From a virus (taxonomy: Duplodnaviria > Caudoviricetes): a stretch of DNA of 64,000 nt. Below, one piece after another: positions 6,784 to 58,835 of the stretch. The DNA lies in the IMG/VR virus record IMGVR_UViG_3300006045_001036; one strand, written 5' to 3'. Made by a program: the position numbers and the translations under genes. How positions within the stretch are numbered: position 1 is the stretch's first letter; each line of letters begins with the position of its first letter. The notes under the pieces were generated by a model. The model did not search any database, had not been told where the DNA came from, and saw only the letters and a program-made list of their open reading frames with translations.

Positions 6784-7284
6784 TTATTTCGGTTTCCTTG
6801 CTTTTCCTTTACCGAGGCTCTTTGCCGAGCTTTCGATGGGAGCTTCCGAAGGAGCGGCAGTAACCACGTTGTCAGGAATGTTTTCAATATCAGTCTTAGC
6901 GATTTCGGCACCGTCTTCATCGGTGGTGATTACAGAGAGAACCTCGCCGTCTTCAACGATGTCGGTGTTGGTGTCTTCACCCATTGCCTGTGAAACTTGG
7001 TCGGCTACGATTTGAGCAACGTCTTCGGGAGCGAAGAAAGTTTCTTCTACGCCAATTTCTCCTGCATCGTCCGCCGAACTTGTCAATGCACCGCCGACAA
7101 CACCTGCGACTGCAGGGGCAGCTAAACCAGCGAGAGCAGGGAGTACAGAGTCAACCTTGGCTCTTTGACTTCCTGAACGCACAGGACTTCTTTTTGGAGC
7201 TGTTTTGCTGCTTTTTACAGGGGTTCTTTTCCTACCTGCGGGAGCGGTTGCAGGGGCTTTAGTTGAACTAATAATTTTCATCAT
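6784..7284 (-). CDS. putative prohead core or internal head protein
   Basis: AAGGAG RBS; leader MKIISSTKAP; motifs VKSS, LTSSA, IESSA; located in the head module. Confidence 0.7.
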   Translation of the reverse strand: MMKIISSTKAPATAPAGRKRTPVKSSKTAPKRSPVRSGSQRAKVDSVLPALAGLAAPAVAGVVGGALTSSADDAGEIGVEETFFAPEDVAQIVADQVSQAMGEDTNTDIVEDGEVLSVITTDEDGAEIAKTDIENIPDNVVTAAPSEAPIESSAKSLGKGKARKPK

Positions 7285-9059: not shown

Positions 9060-10598
9060 TTAGTAAGAACCAGCGATAGAACCTTTGACCATAGTCATCG
9101 GGTTCACTGTGTTGATTGCGTATGCACCGACGTAACCTTGTTCAACGTCCATGTTCGCACGTTCGAGTCTTTGAGTTGCGGCAATCGGCAAGAAACAGCC
9201 GACCATCATCGAAGCTTTAAGTTTGTCGTTACCTTTGAAGAGCTGTACAAAGTCGTTTGCACCGAGGTTCGGGTCAACGTACACTTTGTAAGCACCGAGC
9301 GAACCTGCGTAGCAAGCTCCGCTGATGTCTTCGGAAATCGTTTCTTCTTGGAATTTCGCCATGTTCTGGAATACACCGAGAACATTTGTGCCGCAGCAGA
9401 TACGGTTTGTTCCCCATTGACGGGTTACTTGACGTACTGCCAAAGAACCTTTATCGAGAACGGTTTTGAAGTTGTTAAAGTAACTAAACTCTCCACCGCC
9501 GTCAACGCTGTTGAATTTACCCGAAGAATTCCACGTCAAGCCTTTCATAGCTGAAGCGTCTCTCCACGCTTGAAGAACAGCGCGGCTGTTGATTTCTGCC
9601 ATTATTTCGCCCATCATCTGAGTTTTTTCAACGTCAGAAAGTTCAGCACCGTATTCCATCTTAGCAGCGTAGTTAGCGAGGTAAGAGCTGTGTGCTTCAA
9701 TTGCGTAAGCTTCTGCTCTGAGTAAGATTCTGTCGAGCTGTAAGTAGGCTTTAACGATATTCGCACCGTAAGTGCCGTCTTCGTGAGCACCGACATTTTC
9801 GTTGTCAAAACGGTAGTTGGCATAAATAGTCAAACCGTCAGAACCGTCCGTCATCGTGATAACACCACGTTCGTAGTCGATTTGTCCCCATTCAGTTGCA
9901 TTCGGGTTGCCGTTCGGGTAGAGATTACCCGCAGCGTCGTCTTTGACTGCGATGGTAGTTCCGTTTGCCTCGTTACGAACTTGGAGTTCAACGTGTCCCG
10001 GAATAATCGCACCACGACCTTCGATACCGAGATAAACAACGTCTCCGGACTCGTCGGGAGTTCTCGCCAATTCCTTCGTCACGAAACTTGAAGCCCAAGT
10101 CGGGTCAGAACCAGACTGAGAGCCGTAAGGCGTGTGCAAAATTTTCTTAGCAGGGGTAGCACCACGTCCTGTTTCGGTAACAACCTTGAAGAAAGGATGC
10201 AAGCTTTCACGACTGTCCATCTCTTGGAAAGAAGCGATTTGGTCAAGGATAGAGTTAGCGACACCAAGAGGAATCAACTCTTTGAATTTCGGAGCAACAG
10301 CAATATTAGTTGTGTTGGTAGCCGATTGAATCCTTGTACCTGCTGCAACAGGAATACGAAGCAATGCAGGGTTTTCTACGCAAGCGGCATCATGAATATC
10401 CATCATTCTTGCGGAGGTGATTGCTTGAGAGTCTCTCAACGCCTTCTGACCACTGGCTTTCAGTGCTATATTCGCTGAAGACAGTATCTTAGCATGACGT
10501 TTGACCGCAGCTTGGTCGGCGGACTGTATCTTGGTCATACCAGCTTTTTGACCTTTGTGTAAGGGCTTCTGTGAAGTCCCACTGTTAATAATAACCAT
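9060..10598 (-). CDS. major capsid protein (T4 gp23-like)
   Basis: 512 aa after the protease; Q-x-M-x-S-x-x-S..F pattern, GEIMAEINSRAV, AGSLGAYKVYVDP; ~92 aa propeptide. Confidence 0.88.
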   Translation of the reverse strand: MVIINSGTSQKPLHKGQKAGMTKIQSADQAAVKRHAKILSSANIALKASGQKALRDSQAITSARMMDIHDAACVENPALLRIPVAAGTRIQSATNTTNIAVAPKFKELIPLGVANSILDQIASFQEMDSRESLHPFFKVVTETGRGATPAKKILHTPYGSQSGSDPTWASSFVTKELARTPDESGDVVYLGIEGRGAIIPGHVELQVRNEANGTTIAVKDDAAGNLYPNGNPNATEWGQIDYERGVITMTDGSDGLTIYANYRFDNENVGAHEDGTYGANIVKAYLQLDRILLRAEAYAIEAHSSYLANYAAKMEYGAELSDVEKTQMMGEIMAEINSRAVLQAWRDASAMKGLTWNSSGKFNSVDGGGEFSYFNNFKTVLDKGSLAVRQVTRQWGTNRICCGTNVLGVFQNMAKFQEETISEDISGACYAGSLGAYKVYVDPNLGANDFVQLFKGNDKLKASMMVGCFLPIAATQRLERANMDVEQGYVGAYAINTVNPMTMVKGSIAGSY

Positions 10599-17885: not shown

Positions 17886-18333
17886 TCTCGTCTACCTCGA
17901 TTCCTTCAACAACCTGCGTTGCTTCACCGAGTATTGCAGAAGCAGCGTCGATTATCTTGCCTCGCTGTCCTTCTTCCATAGTTTCAAACTCATTTGTCGA
18001 ACCCTCGATTTCAATCGGCTCGTTGGGGTTGAATCCCATACATTCGAAAGTAGTTTTCAGCGTTTTATCCGTTACAGTCACCGCCTTGTTTAACTCACCT
18101 TGAGCAGCAAGGCAGACTTGTAAAGCTTGCGGAGCATCCTCGACAGTGTCGAGGTTTGCCATAACGCTCTGTGTACTTTCTACGAGTTTTGTCTCCACCA
18201 GTTCTCGGGCTTGGTCGAGCCGTTCCACACGCTGTATTTCGTTAAGCACACGCTGTTTTTGAAAATTCTGAATGGTTGTCAGAAAATCAGCGTTGCTCAT
18301 GTGGTTTGCATTTTTCACAAATGTATTACTCAT
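17866..18333 (-). CDS. putative terminase small subunit
   Basis: Helical 155 aa ORF overlapping the terL start (positional inference). Confidence 0.5.
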   Translation of the reverse strand: MSNTFVKNANHMSNADFLTTIQNFQKQRVLNEIQRVERLDQARELVETKLVESTQSVMANLDTVEDAPQALQVCLAAQGELNKAVTVTDKTLKTTFECMGFNPNEPIEIEGSTNEFETMEEGQRGKIIDAASAILGEATQVVEGIEVDENGEVIE

Positions 18334-18655
18334 CGTCTTCTCCTTCTGGCTCGGGAGCGGGGTTCATCTCTTCGAGCAGACTCTCCGCCGACACAGCGAT
18401 TGAGAATAAATCGGCGACAAGTTTCGCAGCCTGTTCCTCAAAACTCGAAAACTGCTTACCCGCAATCGCCAAACTTAGCTTTTCACCAAGTTCGTCACAA
18501 CTTCCCGAAATTAACCCTAATGCAGCAGTTGCTGACATTGTGTTATCGCCGTCCGCCGATTGGATAGCGACTTGAGAATCGACAGGAGCGGTAACTTCTG
18601 CCAAAACCTTGGTTTTTCTTCTCGGAGCTTTTGTTCCACTGTTGATAATTTTCAT
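18326..18655 (-). CDS. putative internal head protein
   Basis: Leader MKIINSGTKAP nearly identical to the capsid (MVIINSGT) and 6784 (MKIISSTKAP) leaders; AIQSA. Confidence 0.65.
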   Translation of the reverse strand: MKIINSGTKAPRRKTKVLAEVTAPVDSQVAIQSADGDNTMSATAALGLISGSCDELGEKLSLAIAGKQFSSFEEQAAKLVADLFSIAVSAESLLEEMNPAPEPEGEDDE

Positions 18656-19832: not shown

Positions 19833-20786
19833 TTAGTCCTTGTTGTTTTTGAGTTCTTGTTTTGCCGTAGCGGAAATGATGTCTTTAATCGCAACATGGA
19901 AATTATCGACATTTTCGTTTTTCGTAGTAATCGTTGTTTCTTCTGAAGAATTGCCGACAACACAGCGGAAATCTGCTGAGAACCCGCCTTTGTCATCCAT
20001 GGCAGTTATAGACGGTATTGTGAGAACTAAATCGTAATCTACCGACGTGCTGTTGATTTGACGAACATCCGCCTCTATCCTAATCGTGTTCCCGATTGCT
20101 TGTTTGGTTACATTCTTCAGCGTTATCCCCCGAGGGCGGAATTTGTCGATATCAAGCTTTGTCTCAAGCCATTCGATTGTGTCTTTCTTCGATTTTGATT
20201 TATTTTCAGCAGAAGAATTGATTTGAGCAGGATTCGGGTCAGCGGGATTTGTCGGCTCAGGTGGCGGAGTTTCATCGGAGTCAACCTTGTTCGTACTGTC
20301 TTTCATTCCGCTTGGCTTCATGGACGGTGCAGCGTGGTTATTGGTATCACCAACACGCTGAACATATACGAGAGCGTTTTCTCCTTCGTCAATCCGCTCG
20401 AAAGCCAGCATAGTGAAATTCCATGCCTGTATCCCTCTCCACATAGGATTAATAACCTTGCGTAAATCGGTGTCTGCCGAGAACACTGCGTAAAGTTCGC
20501 CGTCTTGCTCGTATACTCTTTCGAGTCCACGCAAATCATTATCGTTTTTAAGTTGATGGTATATCGAGTTAACCCAGTCGCTGTCAAACACAACAGGACT
20601 TTTCGACGTGCGGACGTTCACCGACGCATTCCCTGACATTGCCGAACTTTTGACCTCGACACCAAGACGCTGCAGAGCCGTCGCACGTTTAGACGAAGCA
20701 AGCAGCTTTGTAGTCTTATCCTCGCTCTTAATCGAAGAATAAATCTTAGATTTTGACATGAAATCAGCAGTAGATACTATTTTCAT
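19833..20786 (-). CDS. putative internal head protein, two domains
   Basis: GGAGG RBS; MKIVSTA leader; KIYSS, LLASS, VKSSA, QINSSA; Pro-rich linker. Confidence 0.7.
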   Translation of the reverse strand: MKIVSTADFMSKSKIYSSIKSEDKTTKLLASSKRATALQRLGVEVKSSAMSGNASVNVRTSKSPVVFDSDWVNSIYHQLKNDNDLRGLERVYEQDGELYAVFSADTDLRKVINPMWRGIQAWNFTMLAFERIDEGENALVYVQRVGDTNNHAAPSMKPSGMKDSTNKVDSDETPPPEPTNPADPNPAQINSSAENKSKSKKDTIEWLETKLDIDKFRPRGITLKNVTKQAIGNTIRIEADVRQINSTSVDYDLVLTIPSITAMDDKGGFSADFRCVVGNSSEETTITTKNENVDNFHVAIKDIISATAKQELKNNKD

Positions 20787-21197: not shown

Positions 21198-21226
21198 GAT
21201 GCAAAACCTTGAAAGGATGTACACAA

Positions 21227-21499
21227 ATGTCTATTATATCTAAAGACCCCACCCGCTCTGAGGAACTAATTCGAGAGATTCAAAGAACCGAGATAGAACC
21301 TGATTTTTCCAAGAATTTACACTTGCAAGAACTCAAAGAGCGAGCCGAGAACGGCAATGAGTTAGACGAGATAGCATATAGAGACGAGCTTCACCGTCAA
21401 ACAGAAGAATTCTTCAAAGAAATCGAAACCACCCCCGAATACCAAGAAACCGACACAAAACTTCAAGAGCTATGTGAGCAGTTTGCTGACGAGTGCTAA
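21227..21499 (+). CDS. acidic helical protein, paralogue of the C-terminal part of 60808..61380
   Basis: GAAAGGA RBS; clear by-eye alignment with the 60808 product. Confidence 0.75.
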   Translation: MSIISKDPTRSEELIREIQRTEIEPDFSKNLHLQELKERAENGNELDEIAYRDELHRQTEEFFKEIETTPEYQETDTKLQELCEQFADEC

Positions 21500-21508
21500 T
21501 ACACAAAA

Positions 21509-21538
21509 TTGCCGCTACTCCTGGTTGAATAGCGGCAA
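21509..21538. repeat. palindromic island repeat copy 1 (variant; probable terminator)
   Basis: TTGCCGCTA-12 nt-TAGCGGCAA. Confidence 0.65.
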
Positions 21539-21556
21539 CTTTATTTTCAAAACCCC

Positions 21557-21585
21557 TTGCTTTTCCCCAAATTCTATGTTAAACT
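21557..21585 (+). promoter_or_regulatory. sigmaA-type promoter followed by TAGCATT (21592-21598)
   Basis: TTGCTT-17 nt-TAAACT with extended TG. Confidence 0.6.
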
Positions 21586-21642
21586 AAGCAATAGCATTTG
21601 GTCAATTATGAACCAACGAAACTAAGAAACGAGGTAAATACT

Positions 21643-22503
21643 TTGAAACGATTTTTATCAATCCTATTATCAATCGCTGTATTCACTACAAGTACAGCGT
21701 ATAAATCGCACGAGGTTGAAGCAGACTCTGACATTGAACTTGGTGGGTTTGAGCCTATGAGTGAACCTGTTGAAGAAGGTATTGGGCTTGAAATTAAATT
21801 GAAAACAGTCAGTGGAAACGAGGTTATTGAAATCTCCAATCCGACTGATACTGCAATCTCGTGTAAGGGTCTATACTTGTCTAACGATGTCGAAGAACCT
21901 TTTATGTGGCAAATGCCGAGCGTGATTGTTCGCCCAGGGGAATCGGCTATTTTTGCGGGGGAGGGCGATAACGATACAGCGTTTCTAAAGAGATGTAAGG
22001 TTGATTTTAAGATTGCGGTTAATTATACGGTTCCTGTGTATAATCATATTTTGTTGAGTACGGCTAATGGGGAATATTTGAACTGTAGTGAGGTTAATTG
22101 GTGTAAAGAGTGCAACACCGACGATTGGTTTTACAAAAAAGTATCTATAACTTTAAGGAACAACCAATGGGGGGATGTCTATGAAGACGCACTCTACGCA
22201 ATTATTGATGAACACGAACAAACTATAACCTACTACACGAGATACCCTTTATCTTCGTGGAGAACTTATGAATTTAACGTGTCTGGAGATGGTGTTGAAT
22301 TCGGATATACGTACCTCGTTATACAACATTCTATTCAGCCTCCGCAGGTTTCCATGTCAAACAACAATAAGACGTCTACTATATCGCTGTATCACAATAT
22401 TCCGGGTATTTCTTTACCTGTTACTATCGCCCGACAGAGCTTTAGTGGTAATCCTCATGCAATCGTAATTGATGATGCGTGGGAGGCTTCCATTACCCAG
22501 TAG
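21643..22503 (+). CDS. secreted lamin-tail-domain (LTD) protein
   Basis: GAGGT RBS and TTG; signal peptide MKRFLSILLSIAVF; IEISNPTDTAISCKGLYLSND..WQMPSVIVRPGES LTD signature. Confidence 0.75.
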   Translation: MKRFLSILLSIAVFTTSTAYKSHEVEADSDIELGGFEPMSEPVEEGIGLEIKLKTVSGNEVIEISNPTDTAISCKGLYLSNDVEEPFMWQMPSVIVRPGESAIFAGEGDNDTAFLKRCKVDFKIAVNYTVPVYNHILLSTANGEYLNCSEVNWCKECNTDDWFYKKVSITLRNNQWGDVYEDALYAIIDEHEQTITYYTRYPLSSWRTYEFNVSGDGVEFGYTYLVIQHSIQPPQVSMSNNNKTSTISLYHNIPGISLPVTIARQSFSGNPHAIVIDDAWEASITQ

Positions 22504-22556
22504 AGAGTAATGGCAGAGTTGTAATTACAAGAGTGGAGTGAATACTTAAATAATTT

Positions 22557-22582
22557 AGCCGTTACTTCCACAGGTAACGGCT
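22557..22582. repeat. palindromic island repeat copy 2
   Basis: AGCCGTTAC-8 nt-GTAACGGCT. Confidence 0.75.
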
Positions 22583-22665
22583 TTAAACACATCCAACGAC
22601 AAAATCAATTGATGGCAAGCTGTGTAAAGTATTGTATATACTTATTACCGAAAGGAGAAAATTTC

Positions 22666-23056
22666 ATGATTAAGATTAAGAGTTCAAGCGGTGTCGGGGG
22701 GGGGGCGAATTTGTTCGTCTGCCAACAACGAGTTCAACGACATAAAGGCATTTCTTGAAGATATTCGCAGTCAACAAGGTTCGGAGGACAGATACGTAGC
22801 AGAGACCAAAGGAAATCATACTGTGAATATTCCTGCGAATGCACTCGCACAAGTTGTAGATAAGTTCTTCGGAGCGATGTTAGTTGTTGCTGAGGAAACA
22901 GGGGCAACCTACGATGCTTATGTCAACGGTTTCAACTATTGGTTGAAACTCTCCGAGAAACGTATCAACGACACACACGGTGAAAGTTTGGGAAACGCTT
23001 CAACAGGATTTATCAAATCGGCATTGAAACAGCAAGTGGCTTATGAAATGAGATAG
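22666..23056 (+). pseudogene. head-leader protein frameshifted at a G10 tract (phase-OFF allele or homopolymer error)
   Basis: GAAAGGAG RBS and ATG 22666; with G9 the frame reads MIKIKSSSGVGGGRICSSANNEF... to TAG 23056; with G10 it stops at TGA 22758. Confidence 0.75.
22696..22705 (+). repeat. poly-G tract (G10)
   Basis: Ten consecutive G; the only such run I noticed in the window. Confidence 0.95.
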
Positions 23057-23096
23057 CGAAAATGGCATGGTTGGATGCCGAGAATTAATACACAGC

Positions 23097-23127
23097 TTAG
23101 CCGTTGCCTACGGAAGGTAACGGCTAA
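23097..23127. repeat. palindromic island repeat copy 3
   Basis: TTAGCCGTTGCC..GGTAACGGCTAA. Confidence 0.75.
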
Positions 23128-23170
23128 TTTATAATATTAAGCATTTATTTTGCAGGAGGTGATAAATTTC

Positions 23171-23572
23171 ATGGAAAACGAAGAAAACTCAAAAATTCCC
23201 GAACCAGTCGATGTGCCTGTTCAAGAGTATTTGAAAAGTATTGATACCAATTTAAAGCAACTTGTTATTATACTTGAATCCATTACCAACGACAAAAACG
23301 AAAACAGAGAGCAACAATGTGAGGAAGATGAAGATGAAGAAACTCCATTGGTTTGTTCTGTCTGCGGACACACTACATTAACGTACCATGACATTGAGCT
23401 TTGTGGGATATGTGGAGTAAATTGCATGGCTCGAGGACTTCTCAAACTCCAAGATTTTTTCGAATCGCTTGGTAACGGTGAAATTAATCTTGGCAATAAA
23501 TTTGAATTTGCGAATTGGCAGGTAGAGACTCGACCGTCAGGCTGGAGGTTTGCCCAACAGAAGCAGGGGTGA
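23171..23572 (+). CDS. zinc-ribbon protein
   Basis: AGGAGGTG RBS; CSVC..CGIC. Confidence 0.7.
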   Translation: MENEENSKIPEPVDVPVQEYLKSIDTNLKQLVIILESITNDKNENREQQCEEDEDEETPLVCSVCGHTTLTYHDIELCGICGVNCMARGLLKLQDFFESLGNGEINLGNKFEFANWQVETRPSGWRFAQQKQG

Positions 23573-23830: not shown

Positions 23831-23854
23831 GCCGTTACCTAACGAGGTAACGGC
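23831..23854. repeat. palindromic island repeat copy 4
   Basis: GCCGTTACC-6 nt-GGTAACGGC followed by AAAACTGTGTA. Confidence 0.75.
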
Positions 23855-31379: not shown

Positions 31380-31946
31380 TTACAGTTTCCCCAACCATTT
31401 ATCTATGCCATCATAGGCATCATCGTAGTTATTATAAGTAGCTTTTGCACAACCGCTTACTACGATATTATGCAGTTTCCACCTTTGCTTTGGATTTCCT
31501 GTCAATTTTGCTGACTGTGCTTGATGCTTCTTGTTATCTTGTTTCTCCAAAGGAGCTTTCTCTGCGTTTGTTTTTCTTGCATGGCGAAAATGATTAGATA
31601 ATCGAAATATGATTAGACATTTACTCGTGCTGTTGGGCGGGAAAAAGTACCAATAGTGAGACATCCCGCTCTGCTCGCTAATGACATAATCAAGTGGCTC
31701 AATGTTATGAGTATAAAACAACCCCATAACACTTTGTACAAAATCTTCGTATTCGCCTAATACGAAGTTTTCAATGACAGCTCCCGATGCTATCTTAGTC
31801 GTAGGATAGGACGCCGCAATCGGGACAGTTTTGTCTAACCCCTCCAACTCCACATCTACCACGATAACATTTTCCAACGATATGCCGTGTTGTGTAGCCA
31901 GTTGCTGTATTGATTTTGCACTGCTTAATAATCTAATCATTATCAA
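31380..31946 (-). CDS. inserted gene with head-type leader (MIRLLSSAK); candidate capsid-internal protein
   Basis: GAGGTG RBS, own TAGCATT motif and terminator; IFRLSNH motif. Confidence 0.7.
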   Translation of the reverse strand: MIMIRLLSSAKSIQQLATQHGISLENVIVVDVELEGLDKTVPIAASYPTTKIASGAVIENFVLGEYEDFVQSVMGLFYTHNIEPLDYVISEQSGMSHYWYFFPPNSTSKCLIIFRLSNHFRHARKTNAEKAPLEKQDNKKHQAQSAKLTGNPKQRWKLHNIVVSGCAKATYNNYDDAYDGIDKWLGKL

Positions 31947-58514: not shown

Positions 58515-58835
58515 CTACGTCTGTTTTAATCGTTGGTATTGAATTCGTGGGTTGTTCCTCACTTCTTTCCAAAAGTGCTTACCTGCCGACGGTTTTGTAA
58601 AGAAAGCACGGTACACCTTATCAGGCACGTCATAATAAACATACGTTGCACTGGGTACACCGCCTTTGTGGAATCTGACAAGCATGGTTCGAGATGAAGC
58701 ATCATAAGCCACAGCGTAGATATTCGACGAATCAACTTTTCGGAAAGTCTTAGACAGCTCCCGAGTACTGACCGCCGAATTAATCTGCACCGCCGTTATT
58801 AAGTGACCTCGATAACACGACAGTAATCTTATCAT
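58515..58835 (-). CDS. KTSC domain protein with head-type leader
   Basis: VDSSNIYAVAYD..LVRF..YVYYDVP..SAGKHF; N-terminus MIRLLSC..QINSA. Confidence 0.85.
   Translation of the reverse strand: MIRLLSCYRGHLITAVQINSAVSTRELSKTFRKVDSSNIYAVAYDASSRTMLVRFHKGGVPSATYVYYDVPDKVYRAFFTKPSAGKHFWKEVRNNPRIQYQRLKQT

Follow-up and report, generated by a model that had tools for sequence, protein, structure and literature searches.

Phase-variable genes with poly-G or poly-C tracts occur in Neisseria, Haemophilus and Campylobacter. Among phages, the receptor-binding genes of Fletchervirus (Campylobacter) are reported to carry hypermutable poly-G tracts (Sorensen et al. 2021, Cell Rep 35:109214), and contingency loci have been described for phages T2 and T4 (Gomez, Barrick and Waters 2025, bioRxiv 10.1101/2025.10.21.683753). 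Phage head proteins, in turn, may carry removable leaders. The internal proteins of T4 possess a capsid targeting sequence, and the gp21 prohead protease is described as cutting at [LI]-x-E (PMC10052503; Mullaney and Black 1996, cited therein); head proteins of SPN3US feature short N-terminal propeptides (PMC10052503). Here we describe a phage gene in which a run of ten G lies inside a candidate leader of this general type and, as assembled, interrupts the reading frame. The best explanation, to which we assign a probability of about 0.5, is a real slippage-prone tract whose majority genotype is OFF and whose ON subpopulations would arise through replication slippage.

A frameshifted gene and its reading frames

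The window, by which we mean the whole 64,000-nucleotide stretch of DNA analyzed here, belongs to a 219,530-bp contig of a large uncultured T4-type (Gp23 capsid) phage. Its head module lies on the minus strand and encodes a Gp23-family capsid protein (PF07068, E = 1.2e-9; PDB T4 gp23, E = 3e-4), a head maturation protease, half of which is coiled coil (phrog_207, E = 4.9e-14), a portal and a terminase. The frameshifted gene is located in a small plus-strand island (21209-23572) amid minus-strand genes, where it forms its own cassette bracketed by two related hairpins. The principal features are as follows.

22557-22582, plus strand: upstream hairpin of the GCCGTTAC...GGTAACGGC family, closing the preceding cassette
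22650-22657, plus strand: Shine-Dalgarno sequence GAAAGGAG, a strong ribosome-binding site (RBS) 8 nt before ATG 22666
22666-22695, plus strand: ancestral ATG and first ten codons of the leader (MIKIKSSSGV), with the N-terminus kept in the relatives L001, P0003, P0009 and P0010
22666-22758, plus strand: 30-codon reading frame of the ATG in the assembled sequence (OFF state), with stop TGA at 22756-22758
22675-22686, plus strand: motif 1, I-K-S-S, codons 4-7
22691-22693, plus strand: GTG start of the Logan/ENA gene call (P0002, 121 aa), an ORF in the +1 frame that runs to TAG 23054-23056; not the ancestral start
22696-22705, plus strand: G10 homopolymer from codon 11 on, encoding Gly-Gly-Gly plus one extra G that moves the rest of the gene into the +1 frame
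22706-23056, plus strand: gene body in the +1 frame, comprising motif 2, the conserved N-domain from A-N-N-E-F to A-Y-E-M, and TAG 23054-23056
22709-22720, plus strand: motif 2, I-C-S-S, 3' of the tract
22823-22825, plus strand: internal GTG, start of the 77-aa JGI call P0001, with AGGA 9 nt upstream; first usable start if the tract is G8, G11 or G14
23097-23127, plus strand: downstream hairpin resembling an intrinsic terminator (13 pairs, T-rich tail), at the end of the cassette

As assembled, the ATG frame reads MIKIKSSSGVGGG and continues for 17 residues out of frame, for a total of 30 aa. The first-pass annotation had described a strong RBS and ATG at 22666, ten G at 22696-22705, a 30-aa frame ending at TGA 22758 and a motif on either side of the tract, and all of these are located where it placed them. 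Its judgment that GTG 22691, the start in the ORF track, lacks a good RBS likewise holds; the site is weak, with only AAGAG 8 nt upstream. The DNA directly upstream of the gene contained no convincing sigma-70 promoter.

Near-identical hairpins (GCCGTTAC, loop, GGTAACGGC) at 22557-22582, 23097-23127 and 23831-23854 bracket the small cassettes of the island, and the family looks like a set of shared bidirectional terminators. The plus-strand neighbor at 21598-22503 encodes a 301-aa product whose hydrophobic N-terminus resembles a signal or anchor sequence and which weakly matches the Lamin Tail Domain (E = 2.8e-4, below the Pfam cut-off); the only G6 run of the window (22169-22174) is inside this gene.

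The consequences of tract length were examined in silico by replacing the run with 6 to 14 G. Lengths divisible by three (6, 9 and 12) join leader and body into a single protein of 128-130 aa from ATG 22666, or 129 aa when the gene is read with G9, as the first-pass annotation had proposed for G9 and G12. With 7, 10 or 13 G (n = 1 mod 3), translation from the same ATG yields 29-30 aa and a separate ORF of 120-122 codons begins at GTG 22691; with 8, 11 or 14 G (n = 2 mod 3), it yields 25-26 aa and only a 77-codon ORF from GTG 22823 is left. Contingency genes are recognized by a mononucleotide run of roughly 7 or more in coding sequence or promoter and by length changes of a single base that toggle between full-length and truncated products. 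The G10 tract is of sufficient length, and the toggling occurs in silico.

Public gene calls differ at this locus. The six neighboring genes on both sides have identical sequences recorded from JGI/IMG, Logan and ENA, whereas the frameshifted locus is represented by the 121-aa call P0002 in Logan and ENA, as expected for G10, and by the 77-aa call P0001 in JGI/IMG. The latter derives from a 4090-bp JGI contig, starts exactly at GTG 22823 and is the exact ORF predicted for G8, G11 or G14. It hints at tract-length variation but is only suggestive, since another choice of start (AGGA precedes GTG 22823) or a contig end would give the same call. The ON allele of 128-130 aa is absent from a collection of 15 billion proteins. 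An exact look-up of the upstream peptides expected for G8 and G11 found neither; the G10 control peptides were likewise uncalled, and the look-up is therefore uninformative.

Homologs, start site and truncation

The family was searched exhaustively over 1.8 billion representatives and by a word-indexed search over 5.8 billion clusters. Only five proteins were recovered, with L001, encoded on a JGI metagenome contig, as one further relative; a scan of a single JGI metagenome returned L001 alone, at 65% identity. The locus had zero matches among phage GenBank records (blastn, distant mode) and no match in GTDB genomes. IMG/VR gave no match when queried by protein, by family alignment, by the exact flank pattern with a variable tract, or with two of the neighboring genes.

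Four relatives (L001, P0003, P0009 and P0010) are intact, and each encodes 252-290 aa in a single frame. All four start M-[IV]-K-(L)-L-A-S-A, continue through a Ser/Gly/Lys/Arg-rich linker of variable length, and then feature [IV]-x-S-A-S-[NA]-E-F followed by the conserved domain. Read with G9, the window gene follows the same plan (MIKIKSS, SGVGGGR, ICSS, ANNEF), and L001 has an RBS, AAGGGAG, at a spacing that matches that of the window gene. Conservation of the N-terminus in four intact homologs establishes ATG 22666 as the ancestral start, in agreement with the earlier claim that the upstream ATG is the true one. The gene as assembled is therefore shifted by a single base, and G9 or G12 restores it.

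This comparison also bears on whether the real product might be leaderless, beginning at GTG 22691 (121 aa) or GTG 22823 (77 aa), with the ATG leader vestigial or encoding a separate 30-aa peptide. Gene callers picked both GTGs, and the second is preceded by AGGA at 9 nt. Yet GTG 22691, with its poor upstream sequence, falls within the frame opened by ATG 22666 and its strong RBS; a product of 77 aa would be missing helix 1 and the beta-hairpin from the predicted folded domain; and in the homologs leader and body are one protein. We therefore give a leaderless product hardly any weight.

None of the four homologs contains a long G run. In L001, the two glycines are encoded by GGA GGA, and the longest run is G5; the leader of P0003 reads I-G-G-R at the corresponding site. 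The absence of the tract from homologs indicates that it is specific to the lineage of the window phage. The first-pass annotation had stated that homologs lacking the tract and starting downstream would count against its interpretation; they do lack the tract, and they start not downstream but at an equivalent upstream ATG.

Relative to these homologs, the window copy is truncated at its C-terminus. It ends directly after the A-Y-E-M that closes the N-domain, while all four intact relatives extend into a disordered linker and a helical C-domain of roughly 120 aa. No trace of the missing linker and C-domain was found within the 64-kb window, nor did the window contain counterparts of the genes that neighbor L001. 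In the L001 contig itself, the first 23 residues encoded by the gene that follows the homolog (1093-1521) include I-L-S-C, I-A-S-A and I-N-S-S, and the next ORF (1592-1735) opens like a CHAP/NlpC-type peptidase (G-A-Q-C-W-D-G). A full-length paralog, P0009, has 266 aa, an intact leader and C-terminal domain, and 63% identity over the N-domain. It is recorded outside the window on a contig that is also 219,530 bp long, and we infer that P0009 and the window gene share one contig. Neither the truncation nor a full-length copy on a contig of the same size had featured in the first-pass annotation. By the alignments, the protein is a truncated, N-domain-only paralog in a five-member family.

The window copy is no recent duplicate: in the N-domain tree, its branch (0.37) is about as long as that of intact P0010 (0.41). 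Between the window body and L001, dN is 0.29, whereas pS has reached saturation (0.83), and the window copy has lost none of the family-invariant residues. By these comparisons the N-domain is intact and has experienced purifying selection over a long period.

Structure prediction and a Foldseek search had both been suggested earlier as checks. The 121-residue N-domain folds on its own (AF2 pLDDT 83.5, with the leader remnant disordered), and the full-length model is unusable (pLDDT 50.8). The fold has no match: Foldseek of the N-domain model against PDB and BFVD gave E values of at least 0.2, and VIA wide returned a flat list with a best Z of 5.2. Likewise, profile searches of PHROGs, Pfam and PDB with the protein found no match, and the best ESM Atlas score of 0.86 is at chance level. 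Residues 39-81 of the 22691-23056 ORF gave weak but repeated matches to YDG-domain repeats in giant bacterial surface proteins (P0004-P0008, E 1e-9 to 1e-3). We rejected kinship with the YDG domain, as Pfam YDG does not match the phage protein and the likeness to YDG repeats is probably a short-motif similarity. Family, fold and context offer no hint of the two roles that the first-pass annotation had given as examples, an anti-defense factor or a trigger of host defense; they neither support nor exclude the former.

A domain that is conserved, foldable and under selection implies that the frame break is recent, reversible or artefactual. One candidate explanation is decay of a redundant copy, in which a run born of drift happened to slip by +1 and inactivated a truncated duplicate, and no adaptive switching took place. 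The loss of the linker and helical domain, together with a full-length P0009 on a contig of matching length, makes simple decay a serious rival, and it draws further support from the unrecorded ON allele and from a tract seen in no homolog. Opposed to it are the lack of other lesions, with a 121-codon frame still open in DNA of 39% GC and every family-invariant residue in place; the retention of a strong RBS, both leader motifs and the gene's own terminator; a historical dN/dS well below 1, on a branch that does not exceed an intact relative's in length; and a remaining domain that folds confidently alone. With no other lesions, selection on the sequence and a foldable domain, any inactivation must be recent, and at G10 it is readily reversible. 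Overall, we regard decay as unlikely.

The tract, chance and assembly error

The G10 tract is the sole homopolymer of at least 7 bases in the 64-kb window, where the next longest runs are 6 bases. From base composition, 64 kb would be expected to contain about 16 runs of at least 7 and 0.0085 runs of G10. Homopolymer avoidance is strong across positions 1-64000: apart from G10, there are zero runs of at least 7 of any base, compared to expectations from base composition of about 10 for T, 3.5 for A, 1.8 for C and 0.9 for G. Codon usage is similarly unusual at the tract. GGG is the rarest glycine codon (14.5%), and the tract uses it three times; among 17 large genes, none of the 16 Gly-Gly-Gly triplets and one of the 98 Gly-Gly pairs is all GGG.

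Homopolymers of about ten G are classic sites of indel miscalls, and the simplest alternative is that the true sequence has G9 (or G12), so that the gene is intact and merely contains an odd Gly-Gly-Gly codon run. Removal of a single G yields a flawless full-length protein that begins with the conserved leader, and noisy reads could account for the mismatch between the JGI and Logan/ENA calls. Against this, 96% of the window is coding, ORFs as long as 1414 codons run without a break, and each of the 23 runs of six bases sits inside an intact ORF. The only broken gene is that with the only long run, and the six-base runs all lie in intact genes; a general homopolymer error is thus not apparent in the assembly. 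Logan and ENA both record the 121-aa call, and G9 would still be physically slippery; it would remove the OFF state but not the hypermutability. We consider a sequencing or assembly indel unlikely, while granting it a real share of the probability.

The sequence of the tract could also suggest that G10 is a working arrangement, in which programmed recoding sets a low level of product through a +1 slip of tRNA-Gly on GGG-G or through slippage of RNA polymerase. The string GGG GGG GGG G lets the P-site tRNA pair again without mismatch after a shift to the +1 frame, a G run approximates an internal Shine-Dalgarno sequence as in prfB, and slippage by +1 at the final GGG would generate exactly the G9-type product. 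The context is nonetheless unfavorable. The A-site codon would be GCG, which is neither a stop nor rare (18.5% of Ala codons) and so departs from prfB/RF2-type sites; no stable RNA structure was found downstream of the tract (z = -0.54); and the four homologs are read in a single frame without any such site, which leaves the shift unconserved. To our knowledge, bacterial transcriptional slippage sites are A/T runs, and the tract is a G run. Recoding is, in our estimation, very unlikely.

A possibly switchable leader and known contingency loci

The first-pass annotation had described the motifs that flank the tract as head-type. We scanned the 786 ATG-started frames of the window with the pattern M-[IVK]-[IKR]-[ILV]-x(0-2)-S-[SAGTC]. 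Eight frames match, each of them a gene with a good RBS, against a chance expectation well under one. The N-terminal leader is therefore common to the frameshifted gene, the Gp23-type major capsid protein and six others, one of which is a KTSC-domain protein, consistent with that description.

498-1211, 6784-7281, 9060-10598, 18326-18655, 19833-20786, 31380-31940, 58515-58835: seven further leader genes (M-[IVK]-[IKR]-[ILV]-x-S-[SGT]), including the Gp23-type capsid protein and the KTSC-domain protein

In most of these seven, [ILV]-x-S-[SAG] recurs 15-40 residues into the protein. The density of this motif is 0.49 per 100 aa across the window proteins and 2.1 per 100 aa, or about four times higher, in the protease-scaffold protein. 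Within the family, all five members have [ILV]-x-S-[SA] at both ends of the leader, and the linker between varies. This comparison of homologs provides the first comparative support for a shared [ILV]-x-S-[SA] leader in this phage group. The glycine codons of the tract fall in the disordered, length-variable linker between the two conserved motifs, which bears out the claim that the tract lies within the leader.

By analogy with T4, we propose that the leader may be a capsid-targeting propeptide cut by the head protease, with [ILV]-x-S-[SA] as a putative Ser-type cleavage motif. Since the major capsid protein and six more genes have this leader in common with it, the gene product is a plausible candidate for head cargo. 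If the propeptide model is right, in-frame changes in a tract that lies between both motifs would be invisible in the mature protein.

Our preferred reading, of a slippage-prone tract with OFF and ON genotypes, takes as precedents the poly-G tracts of Fletchervirus and the contingency loci of T2 and T4. The assembled majority would be OFF, with translation from the conserved ATG 22666 stopping after 30 codons. During phage DNA replication, slipped-strand mispairing would remove one G (G9) or add two (G12) and rejoin leader to body in a protein of 129-130 aa, such that phage populations would become mixtures of ON and OFF subpopulations. Were the leader a prohead-targeting propeptide removed by the head protease, G6, G9 and G12 would leave the mature protein unaltered, and the ON/OFF state would be the sole thing that tract changes alter. 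This scenario supposes that G10 is the true tract length, as assembled, that the tract would really vary in length, and that the variation would be useful to the phage rather than merely tolerated. Counting against switching are the unrecorded ON allele and the homologs without a tract; moreover, with a full-length paralog on a contig of the same size, loss of the truncated extra copy may be neutral.

A more elaborate version places the poly-G tract inside a cleaved capsid-targeting leader, so that each burst would mix virions with and without one packaged and possibly ejected protein, as bet-hedging on virion cargo instead of on receptor binding or DNA modification. We regard this version as doubtful. 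Overall, the interpretation advanced in the first-pass annotation is partly supported.

If switching is true, phage contingency loci are no longer confined to genes for receptor binding and DNA modification but include one for a candidate head-internal protein. The gene would then help the phage in some hosts and harm it in others, perhaps by encoding a protein sensed by host defense. If the tract is an indel error or the gene a dying duplicate, the finding is ordinary.

The bacterial poly-G/C loci are similar to this one in tract length, composition, 5'-proximal coding placement and three-frame logic; they differ in being cellular, whereas this tract is viral and appears without a repertoire, as the only one in 64 kb. 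The Fletchervirus tracts resemble it in having a G run (7-11) in a phage gene, where slippage by a single base shifts the gene into or out of frame, and in lying near the 5' end, such that OFF yields a short peptide. For those tracts, however, length variation and its phenotypic effect are reported as demonstrated experimentally, and the targets are tail receptor-binding proteins. For the window gene, length variation is predicted; the gene encodes a small protein with a capsid-type leader, and the tract is absent from its relatives.

The T2 and T4 loci are likewise from T4-type phages, where a short mononucleotide repeat in a non-essential gene undergoes reversible +/-1 frameshifts through polymerase slippage, with bet-hedging as the proposed benefit (10.1101/2025.10.21.683753). 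Those loci differ in featuring short A runs for which the frequencies of mutants and revertants were measured and the selective agent (host defense) is known, in contrast to the much longer G run here.

Finally, the leaders of T4 and SPN3US resemble the one described here in that a short N-terminal segment is common to otherwise unrelated proteins and the major capsid protein, and in that a short repeated motif closes this segment before the folded domain begins; genes for a Gp23-type capsid protein and for a head maturation protease are present in the window phage as well. The motif differs, being [ILV]-x-S-[SAG] rather than x-x-E, and cleavage and packaging are putative for the window protein. 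Poly-G switching in phage genes has already been published, and what this locus would add is a predicted target of the capsid-leader type.
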